DNA from: an uncultured Candidatus Saccharibacteria bacterium
GTDB taxonomy: Bacteria > Patescibacteriota > Minisyncoccia > Phycocordibacterales > SIBU01
Reading direction: 5' to 3'
Assembly (NCBI GenBank): GCA_964355335.1
Contig: CAYHDB010000002.1
Span: 3,192 to 67,191, forward strand
Length of the DNA: 64,000 bases
A model generated the notes under the pieces. The model searched no databases and had not been told where the DNA came from. It was given only the letters and a program-made list of their open reading frames with translations. The position numbers were made by a program, and so were the translations under genes. Positions 40,747 to 56,736 of the stretch are shown piece by piece; within the stretch, counting starts at the first letter, position 1; every line of letters begins with the position of its first letter.

Positions 40747-41550
40747 ATGCAATTTAAGAATCCAGACCTGCTCCAAAAGCTCGAAAAATCCGGCTTTACT
40801 ATCAAAGAGTCGAAAGTGTACCTCGCCGTGCTGGAACTTGGCGGCGCTTTCCCCTCTCGGATCGCCGAATATGCTGGAATTAACCGGAGTACTACTTACG
40901 CAACACTTCTGAATCTTTCTGTGCGTGGATTGGTGAATGAAATCCAGAAACGTAACAAAATTTTCTATCAAGTAGAAAAACCGGCGAAGCTTATCGCTCA
41001 TGCGAAGGCCCAAGTGTCGCTTGCAGAGAACCGTCTTGAGAAGGCGCAGACGCTTGTCCCCGACATTGAAGGGTTGTATGCCGCTTTGACGAATCAACCG
41101 AGGGTCCGCTATTTCGAAGGAACGGATGGAATGATAGAAATTTACAAAGACATGCTGGAAGTGGAGAAAAAATATGAGATGATCGCGTTCTCGAACTCCG
41201 CACAACTTGAGAAGGTTTTTCCCGAGAAGTTTTTTGAACTTTTTAGGCGCACGAAAGAAAAAATTGGTATCACTACGCGTGGCATTATCCCCGATACGGA
41301 TGCTGATCGATCCTACAATAAAAAATTTTTCTCCGGATACAAACCGGAAATCGTCCCGAAGTTTCGCTATATACCGGCGAACGAGTTTCCGTTTAAAGGA
41401 GAAATTACTATCTATGCCGAAAACAAAGTCGCGATTGTGAATTTAAACAAAGAAAATCTCACCGGTATTATTATCGAAGACGAAACCATTCACAGAATGA
41501 TGCGCCTTATTTTCGAGCTTTCTTGGGATTCAAACCACGTTAAGGTTTAA
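40747..41550 (+). CDS. TrmB-family transcriptional regulator (paralog 1 of 4)
   Basis: wHTH ..TIKESKVYLAVLELGGAFPSRIAEYAGINRSTTYATLLNLSVRGLV.. plus TrmB C-terminal domain. Confidence 0.7.
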   Translation: MQFKNPDLLQKLEKSGFTIKESKVYLAVLELGGAFPSRIAEYAGINRSTTYATLLNLSVRGLVNEIQKRNKIFYQVEKPAKLIAHAKAQVSLAENRLEKAQTLVPDIEGLYAALTNQPRVRYFEGTDGMIEIYKDMLEVEKKYEMIAFSNSAQLEKVFPEKFFELFRRTKEKIGITTRGIIPDTDADRSYNKKFFSGYKPEIVPKFRYIPANEFPFKGEITIYAENKVAIVNLNKENLTGIIIEDETIHRMMRLIFELSWDSNHVKV

Positions 41551-41827
41551 CCTTATTGACGCTCTGGATTATAGAAAAACCATGAAGTAGTGCTAGACCC
41601 TCACCGGCTCCGGCAGGGTGTGCCAAATTAGGTTAAACATGGCACCTTGGATATCGGCAACTTCATTGCTTTTGACTGTCAGTGCGATTTGGAGCGATGT
41701 TGATGAAGCGGTTTTTGATAACAAAAAACTCGGAAAAGCCGTTCTATTGTCTAGAACAGTTCGGCGTGTGCATAGTGGTGTATGACGCTTTTGACAATCA
41801 ACCGCAGAACTCAGAAATACTAAAGGT

Positions 41828-42592
41828 ATGAATAACGAGAAAATGTTAAACGAACTCCGAACATTACTTGGCCGAAGTGTTCCGTTTGAAATCTGGAATC
41901 AAAGTACGAACGAAGTCATTGTTCCGGTCAACTATCCAATTACGGAAGAAATGCTCCCCAAGATGGCCGAGCAAGTTGAATTACTGGCATACAGCGGTAT
42001 CGATGGTGTCGTGACGCCAATGATTGCGAGATATGCGCTTCCAAGCACGAAAATTCTTCTTGGAAACCTAAAGCGTGATCCGAATATGATGAGAAATTGG
42101 ATCATCAACCGATATCGATCGGCCGGCGATATACCAACAGATCTTGGTAATGAGGAGTGGGAAATCAAATGGTGGCATGAAGAAGCGTCTAAGTTGTGCC
42201 TGATCGATCCGTTGGAAGTAATACTTGTTTCTCGAGAGGAAATGAAATACTGTCACAACATGCCTTTGGACGCTCTAGCGCTTTGTTTCTTTCTCAAGAA
42301 CCCTCACCTCATACCGAAGTATTGGGAAGATACACGCATAGTTTTATTTGACGGTACGATATTCTCTGCAGGTTGTAGCAGGAAGCGTAAGTTAAGAGAG
42401 CTCATGGAAGCCCTTGCGCCTAAGGACATGCACGAAAGTATTGCACACGTTGCCGGCATCGAGGATACCGAAAAACCAACCCTTTTCACGCTGGCACTGA
42501 TGTTTAAGGCGAAACAGTGGTACTGGTGTTGCTTTGATCCGTATCACTACGAGTTGAAACAGTTTAAAGTGGCAACGTTGAAAATCACCTGA
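41828..42592 (+). CDS. Hypothetical protein (254 aa, Trp/Cys-rich)
   Basis: No recognisable motifs. GTGCCA-N14-TGGCAC palindrome at 41625-41655 upstream. Confidence 0.4.
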   Translation: MNNEKMLNELRTLLGRSVPFEIWNQSTNEVIVPVNYPITEEMLPKMAEQVELLAYSGIDGVVTPMIARYALPSTKILLGNLKRDPNMMRNWIINRYRSAGDIPTDLGNEEWEIKWWHEEASKLCLIDPLEVILVSREEMKYCHNMPLDALALCFFLKNPHLIPKYWEDTRIVLFDGTIFSAGCSRKRKLRELMEALAPKDMHESIAHVAGIEDTEKPTLFTLALMFKAKQWYWCCFDPYHYELKQFKVATLKIT

Positions 42593-42690
42593 TTCGAGAG
42601 GGCTATGGGGAATCCCGTATACAAAAGGGGTCTAGCATACTCCCCTTTTTGAAGTTCTAGAGCTAAATCATTGATAGAAAATACTTCAAT

Positions 42691-42987
42691 ATGAACACTA
42701 GGATGTTTCAGGGAACATACGTGAAGGTTCGTGGCGGACAATTTGTTGTCGCTCGACCATCGGAGAAGCCAGGTTTTTGGGTTTTGGAAATGAAAAGAAA
42801 ACGCAGAGGCCAAGCAGAACGCGTTGTGTCTGTTGTGGAACTTTCGGAGCAAGAAATTCTCACTTTGCGTGCAGAAGAATGCGCTGACGAAGCGATTCGC
42901 GAGTTTGCAACAAGAGAGTCGCCCCAGAAAGATCGAGCACGGCTAAAGTATCTCTTAGTTCGAACAGAATCAAAAGAAGAGGATTAA
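42691..42987 (+). CDS. Small basic hypothetical protein
   Basis: 98 aa. Followed by terminator taaataccggcaatcaaaacgattgccggttttctttttt (42986-43025). Confidence 0.4.
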   Translation: MNTRMFQGTYVKVRGGQFVVARPSEKPGFWVLEMKRKRRGQAERVVSVVELSEQEILTLRAEECADEAIREFATRESPQKDRARLKYLLVRTESKEED

Positions 42988-43513
42988 ATACCGGCAATCA
43001 AAACGATTGCCGGTTTTCTTTTTTCAAGTTTCGTTTATCGACTACCCCAGCACCAATTTTGCTTTTTCAAGATAATTTCTTTACTGAGTGTGTTATTCGT
43101 TTTAAATAGTAGGTCAATGCGCTTCGCCGACTAGGTAAGTGCTATTCGCACACGCACATTAGGCCTTAAACTATAAGCAAAATTGATGCGGGGTCCGCGA
43201 AAATCACAGTCGTGTCCTTTAGGCACTCCTTGATTTTCGGGAGTTATCCACAGTTTGTCTTTTACTTGTCCTTTACAGGTGATATACTGTTTGCAGGTCA
43301 GTAGCGGATGTGCCGCTCTGACAAATAGGTCTTTGATAGTCAAAACTCTTGACTCTGAGATTCTAGAAAGTTTCTACTTTCGTTAAAAAATATTTTCTCA
43401 CACATCTTTAAAATTCGGAAAATATATTTTTTTAACCCGAGAAAGCGACAAGACAGAATCTCCTATTTAAACCGCCACAAGCAAAAGTATTGCATTAGAG
43501 CATGTCCCAGTGT

Positions 43514-43522
43514 TTATCCACC
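43514..43522. promoter_or_regulatory. Perfect DnaA-box-like TTATCCACC in the loop of a 10-bp hairpin (tagagcatgt..acatgctcta) in a 680-nt noncoding region
   Basis: Read directly at 43496-43545. Terminator ccgcctgtaggcggtttctctt follows at 43553-43578. Confidence 0.3.
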
Positions 43523-43718
43523 GATGAACCTTGAAACATGCTCTAAACATTACAACCGCCTGTAGGCGGTTTCTCTTATAATCGAAAATTTCGGCACATT
43601 TCTTTGTTGCTTCGCCCATTTGCTCCCGCGGAGTACTGTTCGTACACCTTGGTCGCAAGCCGAGCTCGCGCCTCGAACTGTGCACGTAATTTTCAATTAT
43701 AAGCCCCGTATTTGCTAG

Positions 43719-45329
43719 TTATTCCACGTGATACTTCCCTCTTATCTCTTTTATATTTTCCTCCTCAAGCTTGTCTTTTTTGTCTTTACCCTTATCTGCC
43801 AACGTTTTAAGCTCTTTTTCAGATAATTGTGAAAGTTCCGTTGCACGTTTCACCAGAAACATCTCCTCATTAAGCTCAGGTTTTTCAAGTACTTCTTCCA
43901 TCAAAGCATTTAAAATATGGCCAACCTTCGGTCCCGGTGTTACATGTGTAACCTCCATTATCTTATTTCCATCAATCTTGAGCATTCCGACAGACACCGG
44001 ATCTCTCATGACTTCCTCAAGCATTGCCTTATACTTTCTGAGTCTATAAGGGTTTTCCTTCGGTCTCCCGGTACCGATACGGTCACAAATACGAAGATTC
44101 ATCAGATCCCATACGTTGTCGTGGCCCACCTTAGCCAGTAAACGCCTGACGGCTGAAGGGGTAATTTGTTCGGTATCTGAGAAAAACATATGCCAACGTA
44201 CCATTTTCGATACTTTTTCTATTGTTTTCACGGGAAACCTCATCCTTTCTAGGATTTTCTTGGTTACCCGAGATCCTACAACCTCGTGGCCGTAAAATGT
44301 ATATTGTTTTGTTTCAGGTGAAACTCTCCGTGTTTCTGGCTTGGAAACATCATGAAAAAGAGCAGAAAGCCTTATTTCTAGAGACCATTTCTTGTCAGCG
44401 GCGTGTTGGAGCGACCTTAGGAGGTGTTCCCATACCTCAAAGGCATGAGCTTGATTTTGTTTTATACCTATTCCGGCCTCTAGCTCTGGCGCGATGTATT
44501 TCAAGATACCCAACTTTTGGCTAAGAATAATGCCAATCATAGGGTTGTCGGACATAAGAATCCTTATGAACTCGTCGCGAATTCTCTCCTGAGCAATACC
44601 CTTAAGTAAATCAGCGTATTTCTGTATTGCAACAGCAGTTTCGGATTCTATGGTGAAACTCAGCTCAGTGGAAATTCTAACGGCACGGAGCATTCTAAGG
44701 GCATCCTCGGCGAATCTATCATGAGGATCACCGACAGTGCGGAGTACTTTCTTGGAAATATCCTCTTGTCCTTTATAGAGGTCGGTCAGCTGTCCTTTAT
44801 AATATAACGCGCCGGTTTGGCGCATTTCTTTGTTGCTTCCTCCTCCCTCTCCCGCGCTGTAGGATACTACCGCTTGGTCGCGTTGCTCGGTCGCGCCTCG
44901 AACTGCATCCAAACCGACGTGTTCTATATCCAAAGCAATCGCATTCACAGTAAAATCCCGTCTTTGCAAGTCGTCCTCGAGTTTCTTGCTCCAAGATACA
45001 CTATCCGGCCTCCTTTTGTCGGAATAGTCCGATTCAAGCCGATAAGGAGTCACCTCCACAATCTTCAATGTCTCATCCGACGCTGTTTCGTTGACTACCC
45101 CCACTGTACCGTACTTGTTTTCGTAAAAAGTCTTTGGAAATAAGCCTATAATCTCCTCGGGAGTAGCATTCGTGGTGAAATCCCAGTCTTTCGGCTTTCT
45201 TTTTAGGAGTATGTCGCGGACACAGCCACCTATCAAATAAGCCTCAAATCCAGCCTTTTTTAAGGTTTCTGAGACTTTGGTGACTTCATCAGGTAAGTCA
45301 AAAGTAGTTTTGCCCTTTGTGATTGCCAT
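43719..45329 (-). CDS. cca: CCA-adding tRNA nucleotidyltransferase with C-terminal HD domain, carrying an in-frame ~30-aa GC-rich insertion
   Basis: Pol-beta NT motif ..LIGGCVRDILL... ..RRDFTVNAIA... HD ..ALFHDVSKP... Insert ..GATEQRDQAVVSYSAGEGGGSNKEMRQTGALYYKG.. interrupts the conserved ..D..G(G).DL....ir.vg.p.. block. Confidence 0.8.
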   Translation of the reverse strand: MAITKGKTTFDLPDEVTKVSETLKKAGFEAYLIGGCVRDILLKRKPKDWDFTTNATPEEIIGLFPKTFYENKYGTVGVVNETASDETLKIVEVTPYRLESDYSDKRRPDSVSWSKKLEDDLQRRDFTVNAIALDIEHVGLDAVRGATEQRDQAVVSYSAGEGGGSNKEMRQTGALYYKGQLTDLYKGQEDISKKVLRTVGDPHDRFAEDALRMLRAVRISTELSFTIESETAVAIQKYADLLKGIAQERIRDEFIRILMSDNPMIGIILSQKLGILKYIAPELEAGIGIKQNQAHAFEVWEHLLRSLQHAADKKWSLEIRLSALFHDVSKPETRRVSPETKQYTFYGHEVVGSRVTKKILERMRFPVKTIEKVSKMVRWHMFFSDTEQITPSAVRRLLAKVGHDNVWDLMNLRICDRIGTGRPKENPYRLRKYKAMLEEVMRDPVSVGMLKIDGNKIMEVTHVTPGPKVGHILNALMEEVLEKPELNEEMFLVKRATELSQLSEKELKTLADKGKDKKDKLEEENIKEIRGKYHVE

Positions 45330-45388
45330 TTCAAATATTTTATTACAACTTTCAGTTTTTCCCTAATTAGCGTATCATTGTGACAATT

Positions 45389-45460
45389 GCGCCCATGGTG
45401 AAACGGATATCATAAATGCCTTCGAAGCATTCGTTGTAGGTTCGAGTCCTACTGGGCGCA
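45389..45460 (+). tRNA. tRNA-Arg (anticodon TCG)
   Basis: Acceptor GCGCCCA/TGGGCGC. Anticodon arm AATGC-CTTCGAA-GCATT. T-arm GTAGG-TTCGAGT-CCTAC. Bidirectional terminator aaaaaacctccactgctggaggtttttt follows. Confidence 0.75.
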
Positions 45461-45565
45461 CACATAGCAAAAAACCTCCACTGCTGGAGGTTTTTTGCTA
45501 TGTGTGCGAGCCGGAGGTGTGGTCAATTTTTCCAAAACCGAACCCGTGTGATATACTTCTATGAC

Positions 45566-46249
45566 ATGCGAAAAGATAAGGAAAAAGCTCAAGTTTTGCG
45601 AAAGATCGGTAAAAGTTATAATGAAATAAAAGAGGAACTTGGTGTTCCGAAAGCTACTCTTTCCGATTGGTTCAGAGGACAAGCTTGGTCGAAAGAACTT
45701 TCAATAAAGCTCGTTGAGAAAGCAAGTGGCGCACACACAGTTCGAATTCAGGAACTGAATAGAATTCGCGGTGAAAACCTAAAAAAACTATACCTGGAGG
45801 CAGAAAATGAGGCGGTAGCAGAGTTTGAATTGCTTAAATATCACCCCCTGTTTATAGCCGGCTTAATGATTTACTGGGGCGAGGGCAACAAAGTATCGAA
45901 AAATCGTTGCTCGATTGCTAATACGGAACCTTTAATGATAAAGTTGTTCTTGTTATTTCTGAAAAATATTTGCAGGTTCAAGGGTTCCAAAATCAAGGCT
46001 TGGATTCTGATTTATCCGGATCTCGATGAAAAATTGTGTAAAAGTTTTTGGGTGGGAAAAACAGGTTTATCATATGAAAATTTTACAAAAAGTATGCTTA
46101 TTCAGGGTAAGCATAAAACAAACCGATTGTCATTCGGTGTTTGCAGTGTTGGGGTTTCTAGTGCATACTTAAAGCGAAAGATTTTGAAATGGATTGAATT
46201 ACTTGCTTTGGATTTGGTTAAAGAAAATTACATTGCGGGCATGGTTTAG
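45566..46249 (+). CDS. Hypothetical protein with N-terminal helix-turn-helix and a weak LAGLIDADG-like segment (..LFIAGLMIYWGEGNK..), between two tRNA genes
   Basis: Start MRKDKEKAQVLRKIGKSYNEIKEELGVPKATLSDWF (helix-turn-helix). The 3' end overlaps tRNA-Gly by ~15 nt. Confidence 0.4.
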   Translation: MRKDKEKAQVLRKIGKSYNEIKEELGVPKATLSDWFRGQAWSKELSIKLVEKASGAHTVRIQELNRIRGENLKKLYLEAENEAVAEFELLKYHPLFIAGLMIYWGEGNKVSKNRCSIANTEPLMIKLFLLFLKNICRFKGSKIKAWILIYPDLDEKLCKSFWVGKTGLSYENFTKSMLIQGKHKTNRLSFGVCSVGVSSAYLKRKILKWIELLALDLVKENYIAGMV

Positions 46250-46307
46250 CGGTATAACGTTACCTTGCCAAGGTAAAAATCCGGGTTCGACTCCCGGTGC
46301 CCGCACC
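46235..46307 (+). tRNA. tRNA-Gly (anticodon GCC)
   Basis: Acceptor GCGGGCA/TGCCCGC. D-arm GTT-TAGCGGTAT-AAC. Anticodon arm TTACC-TTGCCAA-GGTAA. T-arm CCGGG-TTCGACT-CCCGG. Confidence 0.8.
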
Positions 46308-46441
46308 GAAGTGAATACGAGGAAGGAGCAAGCCCCGATGGTTATCGGGGCGCCCGGGAGACGAAGCCCGATTGAGCCGAGCGTCTGAGCGAGCCAATCG
46401 GGGTACTGAAGCTGTAAGCTTCGATTCCCGGTGCCCGCACA
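46308..46441 (+). repeat. tRNA-linked structured repeat, copy 1: GC-rich hairpins, conserved module ccaatcggggtactgaagctgtaag, then a duplicate of the tRNA-Gly(GCC) T-loop/3' end (cttcgattcccggtgcccgcaca)
   Basis: Duplicate at 46419-46441 versus tRNA 3' gggttcgactcccggtgcccgcacc. Stem CCGATTG/CAATCGG. Confidence 0.7.
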
Positions 46442-46718
46442 GCGAGAAATATACAGGTCTAGCTTACCTAATTTGAAAAAAAGGAGATTCAGTTGACGAA
46501 GATATATCGAAAAGACATTTATCCTCTGTCAAATCAGGTCTCAGACAGACCCTTATTACTAGGCGTTTTGATCAAAACTGGGGATAACTATGTGGATGTG
46601 TGTATAAAAGACAGGACCAATTTGTCCGTTTATTTGTCTCTGTTTGTGTGAAAACGGCTCTAAATAAGCATTTTTTGTAAAAGACGGGCAAATATCGCTA
46701 ACACGAGATGGGTTTCAC

Positions 46719-47150: not shown

Positions 47151-47191
47151 TTTTTGGCTGTTTCAAATATCTGTGATAAGCTTTGTTTTCT

Positions 47192-47260
47192 GAAGTAAAT
47201 CGGGGCGTAGTATAGTGGTAGTATATACGCTTTGGGAGCGTACGGTCCGAGTTCGATTCT
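47192..47260 (+). tRNA. tRNA-Pro (anticodon TGG)
   Basis: Acceptor GGGGCGT/GCGCCCC. D-arm TATA-GTGGTAG-TATA. Anticodon arm TACGC-TTTGGGA-GCGTA. T-arm CCGAG-TTCGATT-CTCGG. Confidence 0.75.
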
Positions 47261-47545: not shown

Positions 47546-47584
47546 AGGAAGCACTTGATATGTAAAAAGATAAAATCTTTTCGA

Positions 47585-48331
47585 TTAGACGGCAAGCGTG
47601 TTCCAAATAATATCGAATTCTTCTTTCTGCATCTGCACGATACTTTTGTTCTCGATCATGACCGTTATAATCGGCGCAATGATTTGCGTAATAATGACTC
47701 GGTACGGTGTAATGACAAGATTCGCCGTAAGTTTTGTTTGTTCAGGCAAGAATTTGATAGTCTGATTCGTGTTCAGTTCTATTTTCTTGTAATATCGTGC
47801 ACTGTCTGAATGCTGAAGAATGGTGCGGACGTTCAAGTTGTATTTTACGCGTCGTTCTATGAACTTAGCGAAGTATTCACGGTCTATATTCAAGAATTGC
47901 TCCATATCGGAGAGAATCATGTAGTCATCCCCGGGCTTCAGGTCGTCGAGAATTGTGTCGTAAACGGATTTCACACCGGCGACACCCTCGTAATATTTTA
48001 TAAAACTTCCACCAGGCTGCACGTTTTGCAAACTTTTGAGCTCGGGCAAGACATTATTAAATTTTTCACGTTTCAATTCCAAAATCTTCTCAAGCTTATC
48101 GGGACTTTCTGCAGAGTAGAATTGTTTGAGTCTTTTGATTTCTGTTACCATCAAACCTTTTGCTTTCAAACTCTCAAGTAGGGAATAAACAGTTGTTCGT
48201 TTTATCTGCGACTCTCGAGCGATTTTCAGCACGGTCGTTGAGCCCAAGGATAGGGTGGCAAGATACACTCGTGCTTCATTTTCGGTCAAGCCGATATCTT
48301 TCAGTATTTCAATAAAATCTAACTTTTGCAT
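47585..48331 (-). CDS. TrmB-family transcriptional regulator (paralog 2)
   Basis: ..LGLTENEARVYLATLSLGSTTVLKIARESQIKRTTVYSLLESLKAKGLM.. Confidence 0.75.
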   Translation of the reverse strand: MQKLDFIEILKDIGLTENEARVYLATLSLGSTTVLKIARESQIKRTTVYSLLESLKAKGLMVTEIKRLKQFYSAESPDKLEKILELKREKFNNVLPELKSLQNVQPGGSFIKYYEGVAGVKSVYDTILDDLKPGDDYMILSDMEQFLNIDREYFAKFIERRVKYNLNVRTILQHSDSARYYKKIELNTNQTIKFLPEQTKLTANLVITPYRVIITQIIAPIITVMIENKSIVQMQKEEFDIIWNTLAV

Positions 48332-48480
48332 AAAATGTCGATATATTTGACAACAAATTATCTATATAATTAAAGATACTTTACTGTATTCTACAATAGT
48401 TGTCGACATATTTGACATATTGTGAAATAAAATGCTAATATAGTCAATAGAAACGAGCGGAAGTTCCTTAACACAAATCT

Positions 48481-48508
48481 GGCTTTATTCAGGTGTGCCA
48501 TTGAACAC
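48481..48508 (+). promoter_or_regulatory. Conserved leader/operator motif GGCTTTAnnCAGGTGTGCCAnTGAACAC, copy 1 (16 nt before the ATG at 48525)
   Basis: Same motif at 51369-51397 (17 nt before the ATG at 51415) and, reverse-complemented, at 55773-55801 (13 nt before the minus-strand ATG at 55759). Contains GGTGT-N9-ACACC inverted repeat. Confidence 0.55.
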
Positions 48509-48524
48509 TAGAAGAAGGGTAAAT

Positions 48525-48884
48525 ATGAGACATAATAATTCCGGATTACAGTTGTCTGACGGTGAAGAGTGGTGTTCTCGAAGAGATGATGAGATCTTAA
48601 GTTGGACGGAGGCTACCGAAAAAGTTGCTCAAGATCCAACCTTACGTTTTCCTCATTATGACGATTTGATCAATGCGGAAGAGGAGGCTAAAAAAAATCC
48701 GGCACTACGGATAAAATTCAATGATCTGAGGTCCGGGGAGTATTGGAGTGTATCCTCTGAAAGGAATGACCCAAATTCGTCATTTGCATGTGTCGTTACC
48801 AAGGACCACCGACACTACGAGTCTCATCACGAAAAAAAACGTAAATATTGGGTAAGGTTTATTCGAAGAGTGGTTCAAACGTAA
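48525..48884 (+). CDS. Hypothetical protein (119 aa, His/Arg-rich)
   Basis: Start MRHNNSG set by the conserved upstream motif. No recognisable domain. Confidence 0.4.
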   Translation: MRHNNSGLQLSDGEEWCSRRDDEILSWTEATEKVAQDPTLRFPHYDDLINAEEEAKKNPALRIKFNDLRSGEYWSVSSERNDPNSSFACVVTKDHRHYESHHEKKRKYWVRFIRRVVQT

Positions 48885-48951
48885 AAATCATCAAACCGCA
48901 TCATTGTGATGCGGTTTTCCTTTTTTAAGTTGGTGTAGTACTCTACTAATA

Positions 48952-49254: not shown

Positions 49255-49327
49255 GCGCTCGGTTCCTCTCAACCTTTTCAAAGGGGGAGATTGAGAGGGG
49301 GTGAGTAGAACATTTTATAACCACCTC

Positions 49328-50146
49328 TCATTCCTCTTTTTGGAAAGTAGGGGAGGTAGAGACATCTGATTTTAGCGAAGCGTCGAGCCGTTTCGCCTCT
49401 GCCCACGCCAGCTCGTAGATTTTTTTCATAGCGTCCGCGATTTCCGCGCTTTCGATGATGACTCCTAGCTTCTCGCGCCACGAGGCAATCATGATTTTGT
49501 TGTCGTAGATGTTTATTTCTGGGGAAAAATAATATTTGTCCGGCGGGACAAACGCTATCTCGCGTTTTTCTTCCGCGTCGAGCGCCCTACGCTCTTCACC
49601 CATTGGCGTTTTTGGAGCGATGGCGCGAATAGCAATATTTTTCTCCGCTCGGCGTTTGTAATACGAGGGAAAATAATTTGGCAGGCCCTTGTGCATGTCG
49701 TCTACTGTTGCATATGCTCGAATCGACTCGGTCGAGGTGAGCGTATCTTCATACACATGCCGTAATCCTTCCGTGCCCTCGTAAAATTTTATTTTCGGTC
49801 GGTTCTGTTTGGCATGAAGCAAGTTTAATTCCGGAATCAAAGCTTCGGCTTTTTTGATATGCTCGGATGTCTGCTCCGCCACTTTTTTCAAGAATGCAAT
49901 GATCGCCTCCGGCGGTTCGGCGGCAAATTCCGATTTTGGTTCCTTGCCGGAAATGGTAACGAGTCCTTTGTTTGCTAGGGAACTCAAAATGTCGTAGCCG
50001 GTCGTTCTATTGATGCCAGCCTTTCGGCTGATTTGAGTGACCGTGCCTTTGCCGAGTTCCAGCAATGCAACGTAAACAGTCGTCTCCTTTTCGCCGAAAC
50101 CAAAACTCCGCAAAGTCATTTTCAATTGTTCGTTCGGGTCTTTCAT
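49328..50146 (-). CDS. TrmB-family transcriptional regulator (paralog 3)
   Basis: ..FGFGEKETTVYVALLELGKGTVTQISRKAGINRTTGYDILSSLANKGLV.. Confidence 0.75.
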   Translation of the reverse strand: MKDPNEQLKMTLRSFGFGEKETTVYVALLELGKGTVTQISRKAGINRTTGYDILSSLANKGLVTISGKEPKSEFAAEPPEAIIAFLKKVAEQTSEHIKKAEALIPELNLLHAKQNRPKIKFYEGTEGLRHVYEDTLTSTESIRAYATVDDMHKGLPNYFPSYYKRRAEKNIAIRAIAPKTPMGEERRALDAEEKREIAFVPPDKYYFSPEINIYDNKIMIASWREKLGVIIESAEIADAMKKIYELAWAEAKRLDASLKSDVSTSPTFQKEE

Positions 50147-50620
50147 GTTTTGTTTTTCCTCCCCTTCTTGCGAAGGAGGGGAAAGAGGGGTGGTTACGAC
50201 CCATCCTCAATCCTCCCCTTCGAAAGGGGAGGAGAATTAAGGTGAAGTATACTCCCAATCCATTTTGTGTCAATCTTTTTCGACAAAAATATGCTCATAT
50301 TCTTAAATATATTGATAAATATGGCGTTATTAAACATATTATTGACGATATTTATTGACAATAGGGTCTAGAAATGTTACGATTATGTCAGAAAGATACG
50401 AATCGTCTCGACAGGCTCGAGATAAACAAGTTCTTTGAAACCTGCTTGCTGAAGTCATAGGTTTAGTCATCTTCGACAGATGAATAGTGCGCGGGTTCGA
50501 AACCGCCCACTTATCATCTGTCGAGTGAGGCATGTGTCATCCTGAATCGGCTTGAAAACCCGAGCAGAATTGAAAAGTGTAAATCCGCATTTTTCTTCAC
50601 GAAACGGATGAACCAAATTT

Positions 50621-51232
50621 ATGACAACAACCAAAACCGCCGTCGCGTCCCAAACTCCGATCGACTTTCCGGTGTGGAAGACGATTAAGGTAGGTACATT
50701 TAAGAGTATGGACGACGCGGAGAATGCTCTCCGAGCAGCCAAAGTCCTCTTCGAGGAATTTGGTTCAGTACGCCCACTCCTCCGTCATCCGATGTTCAAA
50801 CTTGAGATGGTCGAGAGGGAAATCGATCTCATCAAGGTTACCGGAGAAGAGCTTGGGGTGGAGTCGGAGGTATTCTACTCTCGAGATCTACATACGAAGA
50901 TTGGTGGTGCACTGAGATTTTGTCCTGACGAAACAGCTTTTCAGCTTCGTCTGCAATATCTTGATCAACCCGAGAGTGAGAAGTTGGTTATTTACTCGCA
51001 ACCTTTTCCTCTCGATGACACTGATTCACTTCGAGGCGATTGGACTTGCGGCGGGTTATTTAGTGTCAACAATTATCGCCCACTACCAATATCAAGTGGC
51101 CGCCTTGTCCAAGATGAATCTGGACAAGTATTGAAACTCCCATACACCCTGAATTTAGGGCACGAGTCGACTGGTCAGTACAAAAATATGACACTAGTCC
51201 TTGTGAAGCCTCGTAGGGAGAAATGGCAGTAG
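50621..51232 (+). CDS. Hypothetical protein (203 aa), moderately GC-rich. N-terminus paralogous to the next gene.
   Basis: MTTTKTAVASQTP.. versus MNTTKTAATQPKV.. for the 51415 ORF. Confidence 0.4.
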   Translation: MTTTKTAVASQTPIDFPVWKTIKVGTFKSMDDAENALRAAKVLFEEFGSVRPLLRHPMFKLEMVEREIDLIKVTGEELGVESEVFYSRDLHTKIGGALRFCPDETAFQLRLQYLDQPESEKLVIYSQPFPLDDTDSLRGDWTCGGLFSVNNYRPLPISSGRLVQDESGQVLKLPYTLNLGHESTGQYKNMTLVLVKPRREKWQ

Positions 51233-51414
51233 GTCTGCCACGCGCATAAGAGAAGGCGCATCACAAGCTTCTCACTTCCCATCGCACATCAAAACTGCGA
51301 TGGGAAATCTATCAAGCTCGCAACAGTGAAGTTGTTGGCTTGAAGATTTAGTTCTTTACAACCAAATAGGCTTTAAGCAGGTGTGCCATTGAACACCAGT
51401 TCAGAAAGGTAACT

Positions 51415-52236
51415 ATGAATACGACCAAAACTGCCGCTACTCAACCCAAAGTTAAACTCTGGGGACCAATAATCGCAGACCTCGCTCTTCAGCGGTTTGA
51501 AGATATTTTGGAGGAGGGGAATTCTGAACATATCATGAATATTCTGGAAAACCCAGACCGGTATTCCTCTTCCGGCCCATATTTTGCGGCGAATTGTTTT
51601 CTTCGGTTGCCATCCAGACTACAACAGGGCAACAAACACATTACTGACGAAATGCTCGAGGCTTCCATTGTCGGGTTCATTGAGTCATTCAATGAAATCT
51701 ATTGGGAGGAATGGCTTGAATGGACATCGCTCGTTATCGGCAGTGGTGCGGGGTGGAGGCACAGTCTATATCCCGAGGACCAAACGCGAGACACGATTCT
51801 GAAAAAATATCTCAAAACACTTTATTGCAAAGTTTTTGAGACGGTACTCAAGCATCTGGATAGCCCTTGGTTGAAAAGCAAGAATCACCAAGGAATGTTG
51901 GGAGTCTACGTCGGTTCCTTCATGAAATATAGCCAATGGGATGAGTGCCCCGCTGATTATGGCATTACCAAAGAGGTGCTGCCACTCTGTAATTACATAT
52001 ACGCGACTTACCTTCCTCGATTGGAAATTGGAAGGTTCTCTTCTCGAGTTGCCTATCTCGAATGGAAACTCAAAGGGTACGAACTCCGATTCAAGGAGGA
52101 AGGAAAGGTCACTATATGGAATGGTGAGGACTTGAATGGGACGACTCTCGATGAAGTCGTCGAAAGGCTTCAGAAGGAGTGGGAGGCTTGCAAGTCTGAA
52201 TTGGAAGAAGCTCGCAAGCAGGAAAATCGGCAGTAG
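51415..52236 (+). CDS. Hypothetical protein (273 aa, Trp-rich) preceded by the conserved leader motif
   Basis: Motif ggctttaagcaggtgtgccattgaacacc 17 nt upstream. Confidence 0.4.
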   Translation: MNTTKTAATQPKVKLWGPIIADLALQRFEDILEEGNSEHIMNILENPDRYSSSGPYFAANCFLRLPSRLQQGNKHITDEMLEASIVGFIESFNEIYWEEWLEWTSLVIGSGAGWRHSLYPEDQTRDTILKKYLKTLYCKVFETVLKHLDSPWLKSKNHQGMLGVYVGSFMKYSQWDECPADYGITKEVLPLCNYIYATYLPRLEIGRFSSRVAYLEWKLKGYELRFKEEGKVTIWNGEDLNGTTLDEVVERLQKEWEACKSELEEARKQENRQ

Positions 52237-52413
52237 GCCAGAACACTTACCTTCGGAAAAGTAAGTAATGGGTAAATCTGCCGAGGGCTTCGGAGAAATG
52301 CCTATCACAAACTCCAATCCTACACAGAAATGTGTGGGATTTTATTTTGAAAAAAATACGGAAACAGCAAGGTTCGACCTTTTCCCGATTTAAGGTTGAG
52401 CCTTCGAAAACTT

Positions 52414-53625
52414 TTATTTATTTTTAGAATCCAGTTCGTCGGTTAAGAGTTTTGTGAGAGTTGGCAAGGTTTGCTCGTCGAAGTTTTTTGAGAATACCGA
52501 AAGATCGGTGGCAAAGAGGGAATTGAGTGTAAGGCCTGTTTCTTCGGACAGGATACGGTTGATATGAGGAATAGAAATGGCATCGAGTTCGCGGTCGGAT
52601 GTCATCTTTGCGTCGGTCGAGGTGACGATGATGCCGAGAAGTTTTCCATTACCGCTGATAGCTCCACCACCTGATGAGCCGTGCTGGGCGACGGGACTTC
52701 CTCCGAGACCAAATGCGTCCAATTCCTGGACACCTTCTTTAAATGTGTAGAGTTTGCCAATATTAACCACGCTAGATACGGCATAAAGCTCTCGCTGGAT
52801 TGCGATTCCGCCCAAAAACCCAGCTGGGTAACCGGCAAGAATCACCTGGTTTCCCGAATCTATGTCCATCTCTGTGCTGTCGGGTGATATAGATGGGTAA
52901 CTTATCGGTAAATTGATGTCGGAGTTTGTGCTCCCTGTGATTTGAAGAAGGGCAAAATCATTCTCTCCTGTCCCTGTCGGTTTTTGACTAGTAATTTGCT
53001 GATAATTTTTCTCCATCCACTTTTTCGAGATATAAAATACTTTCAATGTGTAAGAGGGGACTGCGGGGCTTCCCGTACGGGCAATGCAGTTTAGAAAGTT
53101 TTTTTGTCGATAATTTTGGATAAGAAGATATTGGGCGACGTGGGCGTTTGTAAGGATAATTCCTCGTGGGTCAATGATGACTCCCGAGCCGGACAAGGGT
53201 TCGAATAGGCCACCTGTCGTTGAGGTACAGAGAATGTTTACAATTGCCTTGCGGGCCATTGTGTTTATTTCAGAAAAATTTGGAGGTGGGGGTGCAATGA
53301 TCGGTGTAGGCGTTGAAACTAGGGGAGTACTCGTCGGGGTATTTCGAACTTCACTTTTAATGTCGGTATTTATTTCAACCTTAGGTTTCGGACTGATCGG
53401 TAAAGTTTTTTTCGGTTTTATTTCAGTCGAAGTAGTCGTCGCAGTCTTTTCCTCTGATTGTGTTTGTTTTTCCTTAGCGGTAGTGGTAGCTATCGTGTCA
53501 GTAATCACAGTTTTGATCGGTCCCGTGTTCTCAATGTTTGATACAGAAACGGAAGGGGATGTCGCTGAGATAGTTGCGATGCCAATCAACACTAAAATTA
53601 TTCCGATAAGCTTTGCAAGCATCAT
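52414..53625 (-). CDS. Secreted trypsin-like (S1/DegP-like) serine protease without PDZ domain
   Basis: Signal-anchor. Thr/Pro-rich linker. Catalytic His ..ILTNAHVAQY.., Ser ..AQHGSSGGGAI.. Confidence 0.65.
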   Translation of the reverse strand: MMLAKLIGIILVLIGIATISATSPSVSVSNIENTGPIKTVITDTIATTTAKEKQTQSEEKTATTTSTEIKPKKTLPISPKPKVEINTDIKSEVRNTPTSTPLVSTPTPIIAPPPPNFSEINTMARKAIVNILCTSTTGGLFEPLSGSGVIIDPRGIILTNAHVAQYLLIQNYRQKNFLNCIARTGSPAVPSYTLKVFYISKKWMEKNYQQITSQKPTGTGENDFALLQITGSTNSDINLPISYPSISPDSTEMDIDSGNQVILAGYPAGFLGGIAIQRELYAVSSVVNIGKLYTFKEGVQELDAFGLGGSPVAQHGSSGGGAISGNGKLLGIIVTSTDAKMTSDRELDAISIPHINRILSEETGLTLNSLFATDLSVFSKNFDEQTLPTLTKLLTDELDSKNK

Positions 53626-53772
53626 ATAATTCTATCACGATGAATTGTTGCTACACCTGTATTTTTCTGTTAGGATTTTGAAGTTATCGCCTTCGCGGCT
53701 AGCGGGCTTCGCCCGCCGTAGCTCGCTTCGGCGAGCGAAGGCCCCACTTCACATAAAGTTTCGCGGGGCAAA

Positions 53773-53846
53773 GCGGGATTAGTTTAATGGTAAAATAACA
53801 GTTTTCCAAACTGTGGTTGGGAGTTCGATTCTCCCATCCCGCACAT
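53773..53846 (+). tRNA. tRNA-Gly (anticodon TCC)
   Basis: Acceptor GCGGGAT/ATCCCGC. Anticodon arm ACAGT-TTTCCAA-ACTGT. T-arm GGGAG-TTCGATT-CTCCC. Terminator ccgctcctgctcggagcgtttttt at 53851-53885. Confidence 0.8.
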
Positions 53847-53886
53847 CGTAGAAAAAACCGCTCCTGCTCGGAGCGTTTTTTCTTGA

Positions 53887-54150
53887 TGTGCGGGATAGAA
53901 GACGCGGGGGCGTCTTCGTGGGAGAATCGAAGCCCGATTGAGTCGAGCTTCGGCGCGAGCCAATCGGGGTACTGCTCCTGTAAGGAGAGATTCTCATTCT
54001 GTGACGACAAGAGTTTAGTCGCGGGCGATTCTCATTTTTCTGGCGTGGGAGAATCGAAGCCTCGTTGAGCTTATTTTGCGAGCCTTTCGAGGCAAAATAA
54101 CCAACGAGGGTACTGAAACTGTAAGTTTCGATTCTCCCATCCCGCACAAC
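53887..54150 (+). repeat. tRNA-linked structured repeat, copy 3 (two modules). It starts with an inverted copy of the tRNA 3' end (tgtgcgggat) and ends with gggagaatcgaa-gcctcgttg-[TTATTTTGC..GCAAAATAA]-caacgagg-gtactgaaactgtaag-tttcgattctcccatcccgcaca.
   Basis: Duplicate of the tRNA-Gly(TCC) T-loop/3' end at 54126-54148. 22-mer gagaatcgaagcctcgttgagc identical to copy 2. The listed ORFs over this region are considered spurious. Confidence 0.7.
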
Positions 54151-54212
54151 TTCACAAATAAAAAACGCACACAACAATTACGTTGTGTGCGGTTCGCGGA
54201 CATGCCGCCTTT

Positions 54213-54953
54213 TCAGAAGATGAGCGAAAAGCCCGTTGATACCATTACGTCGCTTGTACGACGGACGAAGTAGTTGGCGGAAACGATATTCATCGTCAGC
54301 CGTTTCGAGATGTTCCAGTTCAGTCCCGCGTTTCCGCGGAAAAAGAAACCAGTGTCGCTCCCGAGTGTTCCGGTATCGTATACGCCGGCGAGGGAAGTGC
54401 TGACGCTCAGCCGGTCTTTCCAGAAGGTTATGCTCTTGCTGGCCGTGAGGCTGAAGAGATTGCCACCCTGGAATCCGCTCTCGGGCATAGTGACATAGTT
54501 CTCGTACCCGAGAGTGAGCGAAAGATGTTTGAAGTCTTTGCCTAGCCGAATGTGTGAGTAGATGATGTCTCCCACGCCGAGTGTGAACGCTTTCGGTTCG
54601 TCGAAGTAGGTGACGCCGACGTGAGCCGTGAGACCTTTTATCGTGCCGTTCCATCCTATTCCATAATCGACTTCATTCCCTAAGCTTCCGTCATCCCACT
54701 TTCCCTTGAAACTTCGTGAGTTCCAAAGGTCAAGGTAGATTCCACTTTTATGAGAGAGGAATAGATCAGTTTGTGCGACAGGAGCTTCGCTCAGTACACT
54801 TCCTATGCTATTCAGGTATTTGTTCGCGATGACAGTCGAAACTGTGACGCTGAAGGGTTGTTGTTGGCCTGCCTCGGCAGGTAAATTTTCCTCTGCCTCG
54901 GTCCGGTTAAGGGCGAGCAAAGCCGTTAGTAGGTTGACAATGAGCTTTTTCAT
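54213..54953 (-). CDS. Signal-peptide protein with beta-barrel-like alternating pattern and C-terminal Phe (outer-membrane-protein-like). GC-rich, probably horizontally acquired.
   Basis: MKKLIVNLLTALLALN.. signal. Ends ..STGFSLIF. Local GC about 52% versus ~40% background. Confidence 0.4.
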   Translation of the reverse strand: MKKLIVNLLTALLALNRTEAEENLPAEAGQQQPFSVTVSTVIANKYLNSIGSVLSEAPVAQTDLFLSHKSGIYLDLWNSRSFKGKWDDGSLGNEVDYGIGWNGTIKGLTAHVGVTYFDEPKAFTLGVGDIIYSHIRLGKDFKHLSLTLGYENYVTMPESGFQGGNLFSLTASKSITFWKDRLSVSTSLAGVYDTGTLGSDTGFFFRGNAGLNWNISKRLTMNIVSANYFVRRTSDVMVSTGFSLIF

Positions 54954-55093
54954 ACAGGTATCAGTCTTTTTCGGTTGTGCAGTTTGACTTCTATGGACCC
55001 ACGATACACGTCATGAGTCCAATAAAGTGGAGAATTTAAGGTTAATTCTCCGGAACCGAGAGTTTTACGATAACCCCCGAACCGAGCAAAGCA

Positions 55094-55759
55094 CTATTCC
55101 TGAACGAGGTATTTGAGAAGCGCAGCCCAGTTCTTGGCCCTGACCGTGTCAGATCGCTTGCTGTACTCTTCGTACGCTAGCGTCTTCGAGAGGTCCTTTG
55201 GATCGAATCGCCCGACCCAGTTCCTCGAATTGGAGAGGAGGACCTTGCTGCCCTCAACCGTGAACGGCGTGGGGATGCTCTCGTGCCTGTTGAAGACGTC
55301 GAAGCAGGCGGAGGCGGGGTGCGAGTGGTGGTCACTGTCGGTGAAGACGGCGACATACTTCGCGCACGTCTTGACTGCGGCCAGTAGTCCGATGAAGATA
55401 CCGACTGGCATCTCCTTGCCGACGAGCGACGCTCCACCTGGACCCTGTTCCTGCCGTGAGGTGGGCACAAGAAGGTCGGTCAGAACGACATCGAAGTTGG
55501 GGTAGGTCGTCGCTTGCTCGTTCGCCACCTTCTCAGCCGCGAAGTAGTCTGCCTTCTTCGCCTCGTCGTCTGAACGATAAGGGTTGAAGTTGCCGAACTG
55601 GCTCTTGAGAGCGGACGAAGCCCCCTCGTGGTCGAACTGTGGCGTGAGCAGCTCCTGCGCCTCGTCGTAGGTGCCGACAACTGTGAGGTCGTGGCCTTTT
55701 AACTGCGCAATGGCGGCGCTTCGATTAATATCGCTATCGTCGAATACAAGGATTTTCAT
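55094..55759 (-). CDS. Hypothetical protein with receiver-like N-terminus (MKILVFDDSD..). Strongly GC-rich (about 57%), probably horizontally acquired, yet preceded by the local conserved leader motif.
   Basis: Composition read directly. Many overlapping alternative-frame ORFs, typical of high GC. Confidence 0.4.
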   Translation of the reverse strand: MKILVFDDSDINRSAAIAQLKGHDLTVVGTYDEAQELLTPQFDHEGASSALKSQFGNFNPYRSDDEAKKADYFAAEKVANEQATTYPNFDVVLTDLLVPTSRQEQGPGGASLVGKEMPVGIFIGLLAAVKTCAKYVAVFTDSDHHSHPASACFDVFNRHESIPTPFTVEGSKVLLSNSRNWVGRFDPKDLSKTLAYEEYSKRSDTVRAKNWAALLKYLVQE

Positions 55760-55986
55760 AGTTTTCTGTACTGGTGTTCAGTGGCACACCTGCGTAAAGC
55801 CGTACGGTTTGGTTGACAGGGTACTGTCTTTTATCTGCAATAATTTTCCCACCCATTTGCAATTATGTCGAATAAATGTTGAAATAAGTATAACAATATT
55901 CAATAATACGGCTCTAATACGTTGTAATTGAGTTAAAAAATGTCAATTTTATTGACATTTGCGATAATTCTGGCTACACTAGGAAC

Positions 55987-56736
55987 ATGATAGATACCTT
56001 AAAGCTGTTTGGGATTAAGGAAAAGCCCGCGCAGGTATACAATGCATTATTAATTTTAGGTTCGTCTTCGGTCATGGATGTCGCTAAGAGAGCAGGTCTT
56101 AAACGTCCGATGGTGTATATCTATCTCGAAGAACTTTTGGGTGATGGATTTGTGCAGAAAATTACCATTGGTAAAAAAGAATACTATCAAGCGGTTTCGC
56201 CAAAATTTCTAGAGACAAAACTCGAACAAAATCTTTCACAATTAAAAAAGGAAATGCCGGAGTTGGAGTTGCTCCACGAGCAAGGTCAAGGTAGGCCTAA
56301 AGTTTCAGTTTTTGAGGGAGAGGAGGGGGTCAACCTAGTTTATGAAGAAATAAGAAAAACTAAAGAGTTGATGTTTTGGTCCGATCTTTTCGCGGTCGAA
56401 AAACTTTTTCCCGACACGTATCGTAAGATTAATCAGGCGACAATTGAAAACAGTATTTATACTCGAGAGATTATTGCCGATACGGCGGATGCACGGGCGA
56501 GCGCACGACGATGGGTGGTGACAGCGGGGGAACATTATGACTCGCGACTGGCCACGGGACCAATTTATAATGACAGCGTTATTTACGACAATGTCGTGGC
56601 ATTTTTCCGTCTTCAACAGCAAAACTTATTCGTTGTCCGCATTGAGGACCCGACTATTGCTATAACAATGAAAACTATTTACGAGATGGCTTGGCAGGTG
56701 GCAAAGCCATACAGAATTACGGGAACAAAGAAATAA
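55987..56736 (+). CDS. TrmB-family transcriptional regulator (paralog 4)
   Basis: ..GIKEKPAQVYNALLILGSSSVMDVAKRAGLKRPMVYIYLEELLGDGFV.. Terminator aaaacccaccgaatggtgggttttgtg follows. Confidence 0.7.
   Translation: MIDTLKLFGIKEKPAQVYNALLILGSSSVMDVAKRAGLKRPMVYIYLEELLGDGFVQKITIGKKEYYQAVSPKFLETKLEQNLSQLKKEMPELELLHEQGQGRPKVSVFEGEEGVNLVYEEIRKTKELMFWSDLFAVEKLFPDTYRKINQATIENSIYTREIIADTADARASARRWVVTAGEHYDSRLATGPIYNDSVIYDNVVAFFRLQQQNLFVVRIEDPTIAITMKTIYEMAWQVAKPYRITGTKK

Follow-up and report, generated by a model that had tools for sequence, protein, structure and literature searches.

We analysed a stretch of 64,000 nucleotides (nt) from an uncultured Candidatus Saccharibacteria bacterium (positions 3,192 to 67,191 of contig CAYHDB010000002.1, assembly GCA_964355335.1), hereafter called the window. 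A first, sequence-only reading had pointed out a 28-nt sequence, GGCTTTANNCAGGTGTGCCANTGAACAC, which stands before three start codons in a region that also encodes four TrmB-family regulators, and had proposed that it belongs to a module regulated by these proteins. Our results favour another explanation, which we consider probable: the 28-mer would be the core of a 31-nt structured element of mRNA leaders, located in the 5' untranslated region (UTR) or in an intercistronic spacer, rather than a DNA operator, and it would control translation initiation through a conserved partner. That the motif is functional at the RNA level is very likely; control of translation through a specific partner is moderately probable.

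A conserved motif tied to start codons

The window contains exactly three copies of the 28-mer, at 48481-48508 and 51369-51396 on the forward strand and at 55774-55801 on the reverse strand, all in the sense orientation just 5' of the start of an open reading frame (ORF). None is expected by chance: no match was obtained in 100 dinucleotide-preserving shuffles, even with three mismatches allowed. When the three upstream regions were aligned, conservation extended from a weaker box (AGTTCYTT..) through the 28-mer and three further nucleotides (CAG or TAG), and then ended; the flanks and the ORFs themselves are unrelated. The extended motif has 31 nt, GGCUUUANNCAGGUGUGCCANUGAACACCAG. With a covariance model run over the whole 64 kb, filters off, only these three sites scored (51-61 bits), the next best reaching 10.8 bits. 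The three copies before start codons are therefore real, and the idea of a leader motif with a possible RNA hairpin was borne out, since the conserved element lies immediately 5' of start codons and its hairpin covaries (see below). Two details of the sequence-only reading had to be corrected: the 28-mer ends 16, 18 and 14 nt before the ATG codons and not 13-17 nt, and the spacer of its inverted repeat, given as GGTGT-N9-ACACC, is N8 (a loop of 8 nt).

For each of 185,579 species, one genome was searched with the 18 specified bases of the core as pattern. This gave 17 matches, about the number estimated for chance. Six of them carry flanks that were not part of the search, namely GGCYTTANA upstream and CAG, a Shine-Dalgarno sequence and ATG downstream; these flanks are missing from the remaining 11. 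Five of the six belong to genomes named as members of the candidate phyla radiation (CPR), i.e. Taylorbacteria, Wolfebacteria, two Saccharibacteria-labelled metagenome-assembled genomes (MAGs) and a Patescibacteria MAG, the sixth (L003) being labelled only 'uncultured bacterium'. The motif recurs, with the same flanks and before start codons, in other CPR genomes. A scan of metagenomes with three stem pairs left free yielded 43 contigs or loci, and in this set the covariance model kept apart the true instances, at 49-65 bits, and four chance matches to the pattern, at 16-19 bits. After removal of duplicates there were 42-43 non-redundant instances, all from CPR genomes or metagenome contigs. 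Among the 2.9 million viral contigs of IMG/VR we did not detect a single match. A phage origin was rejected; PADLOC, too, gave no defence-system match for the cargo proteins.

Every non-redundant instance is in the sense orientation and 5' of an ORF, except in L038, where another RNA element follows. Most copies of the 31-mer end 12-14 nt before the start codon (range 11-19 once first-ATG artefacts were corrected), whereas the distance of the motif to the predicted promoter varies among loci from about 0 to more than 150 nt. A promoter is predicted about 35 nt upstream of copies 1 and 3 of the window and about 0-30 nt upstream in several other loci; the intercistronic copies have no predicted promoter. 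In L013 one copy starts 12 nt past the stop codon of the preceding ORF, which leaves no room for a promoter. This locus and L028 contain an array of four copies within 2 kb, a small ORF following each of them, and the L019 group (L019, L025 and L031) has two copies. Between motif and AUG, a Shine-Dalgarno sequence could not be recognised in about 12 of 42 leaders, copy 3 of the window included.

Could the motif itself be a promoter, recognised by an alternative sigma factor or an element-encoded RNA polymerase and giving very short leaders? Its length of about 31 bp, its high conservation and its fixed orientation immediately 5' of genes recall phage-type promoters, and L013 adjoins ORFs which, from their translations, look like a serine recombinase and a terminase-like protein. 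We nevertheless judge this very improbable. The motif has no sigma-70 geometry, the -35-like hexamers being found in the upstream box at a variable distance, and the good sigma-70-like sites that were predicted, in the window as in other loci, precede the motif and do not fall within it. On the opposite strand TGGCAC is not accompanied, at N5, by the -12 TTGC of sigma-54. Neither stem covariation nor G.U pairs would be expected of a promoter, and the IMG/VR result does not fit one of phage type.

The downstream proteins are unrelated to each other: among 31 distinct ones scanned, there were three receiver domains, one major facilitator superfamily transporter and one DEAH helicase, the rest having no Pfam domain. 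Protein-anchored loci (those of orthologues of the third TrmB protein of the window, TrmB3, and of homologues of the ORF 55094 protein at 49-77% identity) were sampled for variants of the motif, and none contained it; the only diverged copy that we found is in L043 (78-121, 35.9 bits). As a leader module, the motif is optional and portable; it occurs here and there across CPR/Patescibacteria, before accessory genes that are unrelated to each other. A mini-ORF readable inside it (GUG UGC CAN UGA) was discarded as not conserved, with GUU in L023 and no stop in the L043 copy at 78.

Such a distribution could also be that of a recombination or mobile-element site (an attC-like cassette boundary, a serine-recombinase att site or the end of a miniature inverted-repeat transposable element) standing before ORFs by chance. 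In support of it, near-identical sequences occur sporadically across CPR lineages, the genes that follow are unrelated and mostly small, close homologues of one motif-bearing gene do without the motif, and the four-copy array of L013 lies beside the presumed serine recombinase. However, inspection showed no integron core sites (RYYYAAC / GTTRRRY), and the sequence of the motif is conserved whereas attC sites keep structure only. The alignment of the three upstream regions revealed neither target-site duplications nor terminal inverted repeats flanking the motif. Most loci lie among presumed housekeeping genes with no recombinase nearby, there is no tyrosine integrase next to the arrays, and the strict 12-14 nt spacing to the AUG would be left unexplained. 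This possibility appears to us as remote as that of a promoter.

Structure of the motif and of the RNA elements around it

A stem GGUGU/ACACC was predicted by RNAalifold. Across 43 sequences its innermost pair is U-A in 26 and C-G in 15, and is unpaired in two; the next pair shows one change from G-C to U-A and one G.U. This covariation of the inner pairs falls at positions left free by the search pattern. Overall 99.2% of the cells are paired, compared with 28-55% when the 3' partners are slid, and the observed value was reached by 0 of 500 shuffles. The stem would have 5 bp, with a possible further C-G pair past an A.A mismatch, and would carry the 8-nt loop GCCANUGA.

In addition, the GCC of this loop would pair with the invariant GGC at the 5' side of the motif, forming a small H-type pseudoknot whose geometry fits (8-nt loop 1, 5-6-bp stem 2, 5-nt loop 3, 3-bp stem 1). 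The third pair of this putative helix, C8-G22, is C-G in 40 sequences, U-A in two and U.G in one; it is never broken and never C.A. In the diverged copy of L043 the loop has 11 nt, yet both GGC and GCC are kept. The data are thus consistent with a pseudoknot, for which the support is thin.

Rfam 15 was searched with gathering thresholds, with E <= 1 over 17 kb and with E <= 10 on a 111-nt slice, and no family matched the motif; the long leader of L015 had no match either. No helix sequestering the Shine-Dalgarno sequence or the AUG was found as an expression platform, and no terminator follows the motif. A model of pairing between the Shine-Dalgarno region and either the upstream box or GGCUUUA was abandoned after a permutation test on duplex energies (p = 0.91), and an extension of the stem through N13/N14 and the 3' flank was dropped as inconsistent across the aligned sequences. 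In the L019 group only, GGCGCACC lies about 20 nt upstream and is perfectly complementary to GGUGCGCC of the motif; this helix would be an alternative that disrupts both stem and pseudoknot. The same three loci have a long hairpin (UUUUGGAAAGC...GCUUUCCAAAA) between a hammerhead and the motif.

Hammerhead cores of type III were indeed found on the same strand as the motif, 25-35 nt 5' of it in L010, L018 and L041 and about 170 nt 5' of it in the L019 group. Folded manually, those of L010, L018 and L041 contain all the nucleotides of the catalytic core, with GUC, GUU and UUC as cleavage sites. Their sequences have the core CUGAUGA ... GAAA, stems I-III and an NUH site, and we assign them on this basis to the type III class, although with Rfam RF00008 they do not reach the threshold (32.3 bits, the gathering score being 48.5; E 2e-4). 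The presence of a hammerhead 5' of the motif would imply that the leader is processed. Bacterial and phage intergenic hammerheads of this type share with our motif the leader, in the same orientation, in related loci; the motif differs from them in having no hammerhead core of its own. More generally, we observed hammerhead cores (CUGAUGAG - stem II - CGAAA) in leaders of CPR genes, 25-170 nt upstream of start codons. The one of L010 follows ORFs which we take, from their translations, to be ribosomal proteins L4, L23 and L2. The window itself has no hammerhead, only two chance pattern matches, both within coding sequence.

At the position of the hammerhead, another dozen loci as well as copy 2 of the window have a second structured element, made of a variable hairpin A followed by CCACUYNAYUGG - stem - CCAUAGAGUUYAGUUCUUUNCAA (hairpin B and box) and situated in intercistronic spacers. 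It covaries very strongly. In 13 sequences compensatory changes affect 10 of 20 pairs. In 16 further matches they affect 14 of 15 pairs, with 92.8% paired compared with 30-44% after sliding. This element has no Rfam match either. Its model detects more than 20 sites, many of which are directly followed by a Shine-Dalgarno sequence and AUG without the 31-mer, as is also the case for a weaker element of the window (54970-55038), after which there is no 31-mer. Given its position, where other loci have a hammerhead, the element may serve in processing or be a new self-cleaving RNA. The leaders are thus modular, in the order hammerhead or hairpin A/B, box, optional 31-mer and ribosome-binding site. 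Selection at the RNA level on the same strand, immediately 5' of the motif, provides indirect evidence that the motif is transcribed.

Three other RNA structures were noticed. The 5'UTR of ORF 50621 (50390-50625, forward strand, about 230 nt) has an unusually stable predicted fold (-77.6 kcal/mol, z = -4.98), with a box AGTTCTTTGAAA, a long hairpin with a T-loop-like cap GGGUUCGAAACC and a long-range helix pairing with the start codon; neither Rfam nor tRNA searches gave a call there. The 5'UTR of TrmB3 (50147-50239, reverse strand) is a very stable GC-rich structure of CCUCCCC/GGGGAGG repeats (-47.9 kcal/mol, z = -4.96). About 2 kb away from the four-copy array is a LOOT RNA (Rfam RF03000, 78 bits), at 1908-2029 (reverse strand) in L013 and at 7558-7679 (forward strand) in L028. 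The ORFs beside it in L013 are presumably, from their translations, a serine recombinase, an Ltp-like lipoprotein and a terminase-like protein, possibly the edge of a prophage.

How might the motif act? Its fold ends about 12-14 nt before the AUG and would abut the ribosome-binding site; a 3' end at about -14 would correspond to the 5' edge of the 30S footprint, beside the site of the helix between Shine-Dalgarno and anti-Shine-Dalgarno sequences. The element would in this way set or gate translation initiation of the downstream ORF. Since unpaired bases are nearly invariant across very distant CPR lineages, recognition by a conserved trans-acting partner is suggested, which would be a small ligand or an RNA-binding protein. 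The diverse functions downstream argue against a pathway-specific metabolite; they could be reconciled with a global signal, with a protein regulator or with a role that is purely structural.

The last of these roles would make the motif a passive RNA element working without a dedicated trans factor, as one module of CPR leaders among others: a 5' stabiliser, a ribosome standby site or enhancer, or an RNase processing signal defining a short leader. Its co-occurrence with hammerheads and with the second structured element would be natural in that case, as would its optional character, homologous genes doing without it, and its fixed distance to the AUG. The leaders in which no Shine-Dalgarno sequence follows the motif would also fit a structural role in ribosome loading. 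However, leaders lacking a Shine-Dalgarno sequence occur without the motif too, and the sequence of a passive element should drift; here both strands of the stem, the loop and the single-stranded GGCUUUA are nearly invariant between Saccharibacteria-labelled and Paceibacteria-type genomes. We therefore consider a passive element unlikely, though a serious competitor. About equally tentative is a more specific form of recognition, in which the 31-nt pseudoknot, with or without the box, would be the aptamer of a new, exceptionally small riboswitch class restricted to CPR/Patescibacteria, or the site of a dedicated RNA-binding regulator, sensing a global signal; in a related reading, hairpin B would be a new self-cleaving or processing RNA. 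Such a signal (a second messenger or a host-derived metabolite), if it exists, would explain why the motif stands on functionally unrelated accessory genes.

Several points weigh against control of translation through a conserved partner. Neither a ligand nor a partner protein was identified, and the downstream genes share no function, a situation that would be unusual for a metabolite riboswitch. The evidence for transcription of the motif is indirect, and promoters were placed by consensus prediction only. The search patterns fixed most of the 31-mer, and the invariance of these positions is partly due to this construction. The switch between U-A and C-G may represent only a few evolutionary events, and symmetric changes of an inverted repeat would equally be expected for the site of a dimeric DNA-binding protein. 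The pseudoknot rests on three informative sequences and one varying pair. Cognate pairing of the upstream box or of GGCUUUA with the Shine-Dalgarno region was no better than non-cognate pairing. Finally, the motif is dispensable for the 55094-type gene as such, since close homologues do without it.

Known RNAs offer partial parallels. Like preQ1-I, SAM-II/SAM-V and guanidine-III riboswitches, the motif is very small (these RNAs have about 31-45 nt), has a hairpin loop proposed to pair with a flanking strand and highly conserved unpaired nucleotides, and is placed directly at the ribosome-binding site. It differs from them by the absence of sequence or covariance-model similarity in the Rfam searches, by a Shine-Dalgarno sequence that lies outside the fold with no sequestering helix, by downstream genes having no common pathway, and by a putative pseudoknot that uses the 5' flank. 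Translational operators bound by proteins (those of the MS2 and Q-beta coat proteins, the mimics in ribosomal-protein leaders, the ThrRS operator) are short sequence-specific hairpins inside or at the edge of the 30S site, and such a site can be common to several mRNAs of one regulon; unlike them, our hairpin includes neither start codon nor Shine-Dalgarno sequence and is spread over phylum-level distances on unrelated genes. Orphan Rfam motifs such as LOOT were also found through conservation and covariation in intergenic regions of uncultivated bacteria, but the 31-mer is absent from Rfam 15, much shorter and strictly tied to the start codon.

TrmB paralogues and candidate operators

The four TrmB-family genes of the window were confirmed at the positions given by the sequence-only reading: all match Pfam PF01978 over 65-68 of its 68 positions, with E about 6e-13 to 1e-17 and above the gathering score. 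The proteins share 27-33% mutual identity. Past the helix-turn-helix no Pfam or NCBIfam match was found in any of the four, and scores for NCBIfam equivalogs were far under the cut-offs. The AlphaFold2 model of TrmB3 (predicted local distance difference test (pLDDT) 90) matches TrmBL2 (5BQT/5BPD) over its full length, with E 2e-13 and about 260 columns. From this model its C-terminal domain resembles a PLD-like domain; a sugar-binding effector domain of the TrmB/TrmBL1 type was not found. Orthologues of TrmB3 (72-91% identity) come from genomes named Taylorbacteria, Nomurabacteria and Paceibacterota.

The association of TrmB genes with the motif also stood, TrmB-family genes being enriched beside it: one is found on its 5' side in 14 distinct loci, divergent in 12 of them, typically about 125-250 nt from the motif, and co-directional in two. 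On the other hand, no TrmB gene precedes the motif in at least 10 loci whose upstream sequence exceeds 1.2 kb; from translations, we take the neighbours in these loci to be housekeeping genes (ribosomal proteins, GAPDH, RecA, the CCA-adding enzyme). Conversely, the motif is absent from the TrmB3-orthologue loci, L064 included. The motif is thus neither necessary nor sufficient for a relationship with TrmB. L064 (600-7900, a Pacebacteria contig) contains a run of four TrmB paralogues, and each of them has a divergent partner gene. Three of these partners encode Peripla_BP_6 binding proteins and the fourth a metallo-beta-lactamase/anti-Pycsar-like protein. TrmB paralogue arrays of this kind thus appear to recur in CPR.

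These data bear on the model of the sequence-only reading, in which the inverted repeat GGTGT-N8-ACACC would be bound as double-stranded DNA by the neighbouring TrmB paralogues and act as a roadblock downstream of the promoter. The frequent divergent TrmB gene at short distance speaks for it, as do the symmetric changes in the stem, which suit a dimeric binding site, and the fact that TrmB-family operators are inverted repeats with 3-8 bp spacers. Nevertheless, we find this model improbable. Besides the TrmB loci without motif (the four TrmB/partner pairs of L064 among them) and the motif loci without TrmB, three paralogues of just 27-33% identity would have to read the same 31-mer. The motif tracks the AUG and not the promoter, some copies lie between cistrons, and homologues of 55094 at 49-77% identity lack it. 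A palindromic operator would account neither for the asymmetric flank GGCUUUA nor for its covariation with the loop. The module as it had been proposed therefore keeps its conserved leader element, and loses the module-specific TrmB operator.

Moreover, the TrmB intergenic regions have a palindrome of their own, TGTCRA-N5-6-TYGACA, which the sequence-only reading did not mention. Four sites were found in the window compared with 0.06 expected, only in three TrmB intergenic regions and overlapping -35 boxes; related sequences occur upstream of TrmB3 orthologues and in the TrmB intergenic region of an Azambacteria locus (L072). Judged from their sequence and position, these palindromes are likely to be TrmB operators, and are better candidates than the 31-mer. 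With the Thermococcales operators (TGM and TrmB sites), the 31-mer has in common an inverted repeat with a short spacer adjoining TrmB-family genes; it does not behave like an operator, and the palindrome at the -35 boxes fits better. A further difference is that the regulators here resemble TrmBL2, with no sugar-binding domain found. Operons with the motif would thus often be under local transcriptional control of a TrmBL2-like regulator, probably through these separate promoter palindromes, and TrmB-like proteins look like common local regulators of such CPR operons. The promoter-like site of TrmB4 (TTGACA-17-TACACT; 55952-55987, forward strand) ends 7 nt before the ATG, and its mRNA may be leaderless.

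A second palindrome, GTGCCA-N14-TGGCAC, had been described as related to the motif. It exists, at 41620-41645, but kinship with the motif was not upheld: it has no match to the covariance model, and in the four related loci that we read it is missing downstream of the TrmB1 orthologue; it was therefore rejected as a fourth copy.

Cargo genes and significance

Positions of the features are collected in Table 1.

Table 1. Motif copies, RNA elements, genes and palindromes of the window, with hammerhead and hairpin-B positions in other loci
Feature	Position	Strand	Remark
Motif copy 1, 31 nt GGCUUUAUUCAGGUGUGCCAUUGAACACUAG	48481-48511	+	ends 13 nt before ATG 48525; 52.9 bits; G.U pair in stem
Motif copy 2	51369-51399	+	intercistronic, after ORF 50621-51232; ends 15 nt before ATG 51415; 60.8 bits
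Motif copy 3	55771-55801	-	ends 11 nt before ATG 55759; 51.5 bits; no recognisable Shine-Dalgarno sequence before this ATG
Upstream box AGTTCCTTAACA	48462-48473	+	leader of motif copy 1
Hairpin A	51278-51304	+	precedes hairpin B at motif copy 2
Hairpin B and box, CAAGCUCGCAAC..GUUGUUGGCUUG-AAGAUUUAGUUCUUUACAACC	51296-51366	+	directly 5' of motif copy 2; model R2 58.6 bits
Weaker hairpin-B element	54970-55038	-	between stop of 55094-55759 and start of 54213-54953; model R2 30 bits, E about 1e-4
Hairpin-B elements elsewhere	L015 5925-5996; L060 572-642; L022 417-488; L049 610-680; L036 12468-12538; others
Hammerheads elsewhere	L010 ~2535-2585; L018 ~130-185; L041 ~3160-3220 (-); L073 ~2400-2465; L019 13916-13970 (-), 11648-11694 (-)
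TrmB1	40747-41550	+	no motif beside it in the window; orthologues (59-74% identity) adjoin the motif in L020, L015, L029, L035, L057
TrmB2	47585-48331	-	divergent from motif-bearing ORF 48525
TrmB3	49328-50146	-	highly conserved across Paceibacteria, 72-91% identity
TrmB4	55987-56736	+	divergent from motif-bearing ORF 55094-55759
TGTCGA-N5-TTGACA, two sites	48336-48352, 48401-48417		between TrmB2 and ORF 48525; second overlaps -35 box of promoter-like site 48412-48441
TGTCAA-N6-TCGACA	50268-50285		at -35 box of TrmB3 promoter-like site; kept with substitutions upstream of TrmB3 orthologues
TGTCAA-N5-TTGACA	55941-55957		inside perfect AAATGTCAAT-aaa-ATTGACATTT; overlaps -35 box of TrmB4 promoter-like site 55952-55980
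GTGCCA-N14-TGGCAC palindrome	41620-41645	+	shares GGTGTGCCA with the motif
ORF 48525, 119 amino acids, motif-bearing	48525-48884	+	no family; only a weak Lcl_C match under threshold
ORF 50621, 203 amino acids, first gene of operon	50621-51232	+	230-nt highly structured 5'UTR, no 31-mer
ORF 51415, 273 amino acids, motif-bearing	51415-52236	+	no known domain
ORF 55094, 221 amino acids, motif-bearing	55094-55759	-	divergent CheY-like protein; GC 0.58

The proteins of ORFs 48525, 50621 and 51415 have no family in Pfam, NCBIfam or PADLOC. That of ORF 50621 has a partial homologous stretch in L049 (23 amino acids, 70% identity), preceded there by the motif. The N-termini of the 50621 and 51415 proteins had been described as paralogous; the short match is real (MTTTKTA and MNTTKTA), whereas BLASTP detected no further paralogy.

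The ORF 55094 protein belongs to a CPR-wide family (313 matches, some annotated CheY-like). The structure prediction that had been suggested gave a confident model for it (pLDDT 92), with only weak matches to receiver domains (E about 0.02). In 13 protein-anchored loci obtained from seven of its homologues (49-77% identity) we did not find the motif. These loci show instead ordinary sigma-70-type promoters with short leaders, or a hammerhead, or long leaders. The family adjoins HU and RNase Y in a Berkelbacteria-labelled lineage too.

As to the origin of the region, it had been said that several of the genes are GC-rich, and this holds for 55094-55759 (GC 0.58) and 54213-54953 (0.51), compared with 0.44 for the window. 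Presence in relatives was examined on a syntenic Taylorbacteria contig, ordered RNase Y - HU - TrmB3 - trypsin-like protease - RNHCP, from which the cargo genes are absent; some of the cargo is therefore variable. The proposed horizontal acquisition is supported in part only, given the wide distribution of the 55094 family in CPR and its position beside HU and RNase Y elsewhere. An archaeal (Methanosarcina-type) origin, to which the TrmB genes might have pointed, was rejected: family profile searches identified RNase Y, HU, a CCA-adding enzyme of the bacterial PolyA_pol type and UPF0102 in the window, and the TrmB3 orthologues come from the bacterial genomes named above. Together with the neighbourhood shared with the Taylorbacteria contig, this suggests that the window belongs to a Paceibacteria-type member of the CPR/Patescibacteria. 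It has four tRNA genes (45389, 46235, 47201 and 53773). Between tRNA-Arg and tRNA-Gly lies an ORF of 249 amino acids (45500-46249, forward strand) with a weak HTH_3 match, whose 3' end overlaps tRNA-Gly (46235); it may be spurious, or else what is left of a mobile or homing-type gene.

To our knowledge, almost nothing is known about gene regulation in Patescibacteria. These bacteria are ultra-small episymbionts, for the most part uncultivated, and the majority of their accessory genes lack an assigned function. In the literature on CPR combined with riboswitches, TrmB, structured RNA or hammerheads, no work came up that connects CPR with TrmB regulators or with leader RNAs of defined structure. 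The motif looks like a previously undescribed leader RNA restricted to CPR, and hairpin A/B like a second undescribed RNA element. Conserved nearly base for base between Saccharibacteria-labelled and Paceibacteria-type genomes, the motif marks otherwise anonymous genes as sharing one post-transcriptional input, and offers a handle on a regulon in this microbial dark matter. If a ligand or a protein partner exists, it would provide a native regulatory part for the genetic tools now emerging in these organisms. Finally, TrmBL2-like proteins appear as common local transcription factors in CPR, and the modular leaders suggest that RNA processing, together with leader structure, is a major layer of control in these reduced genomes.

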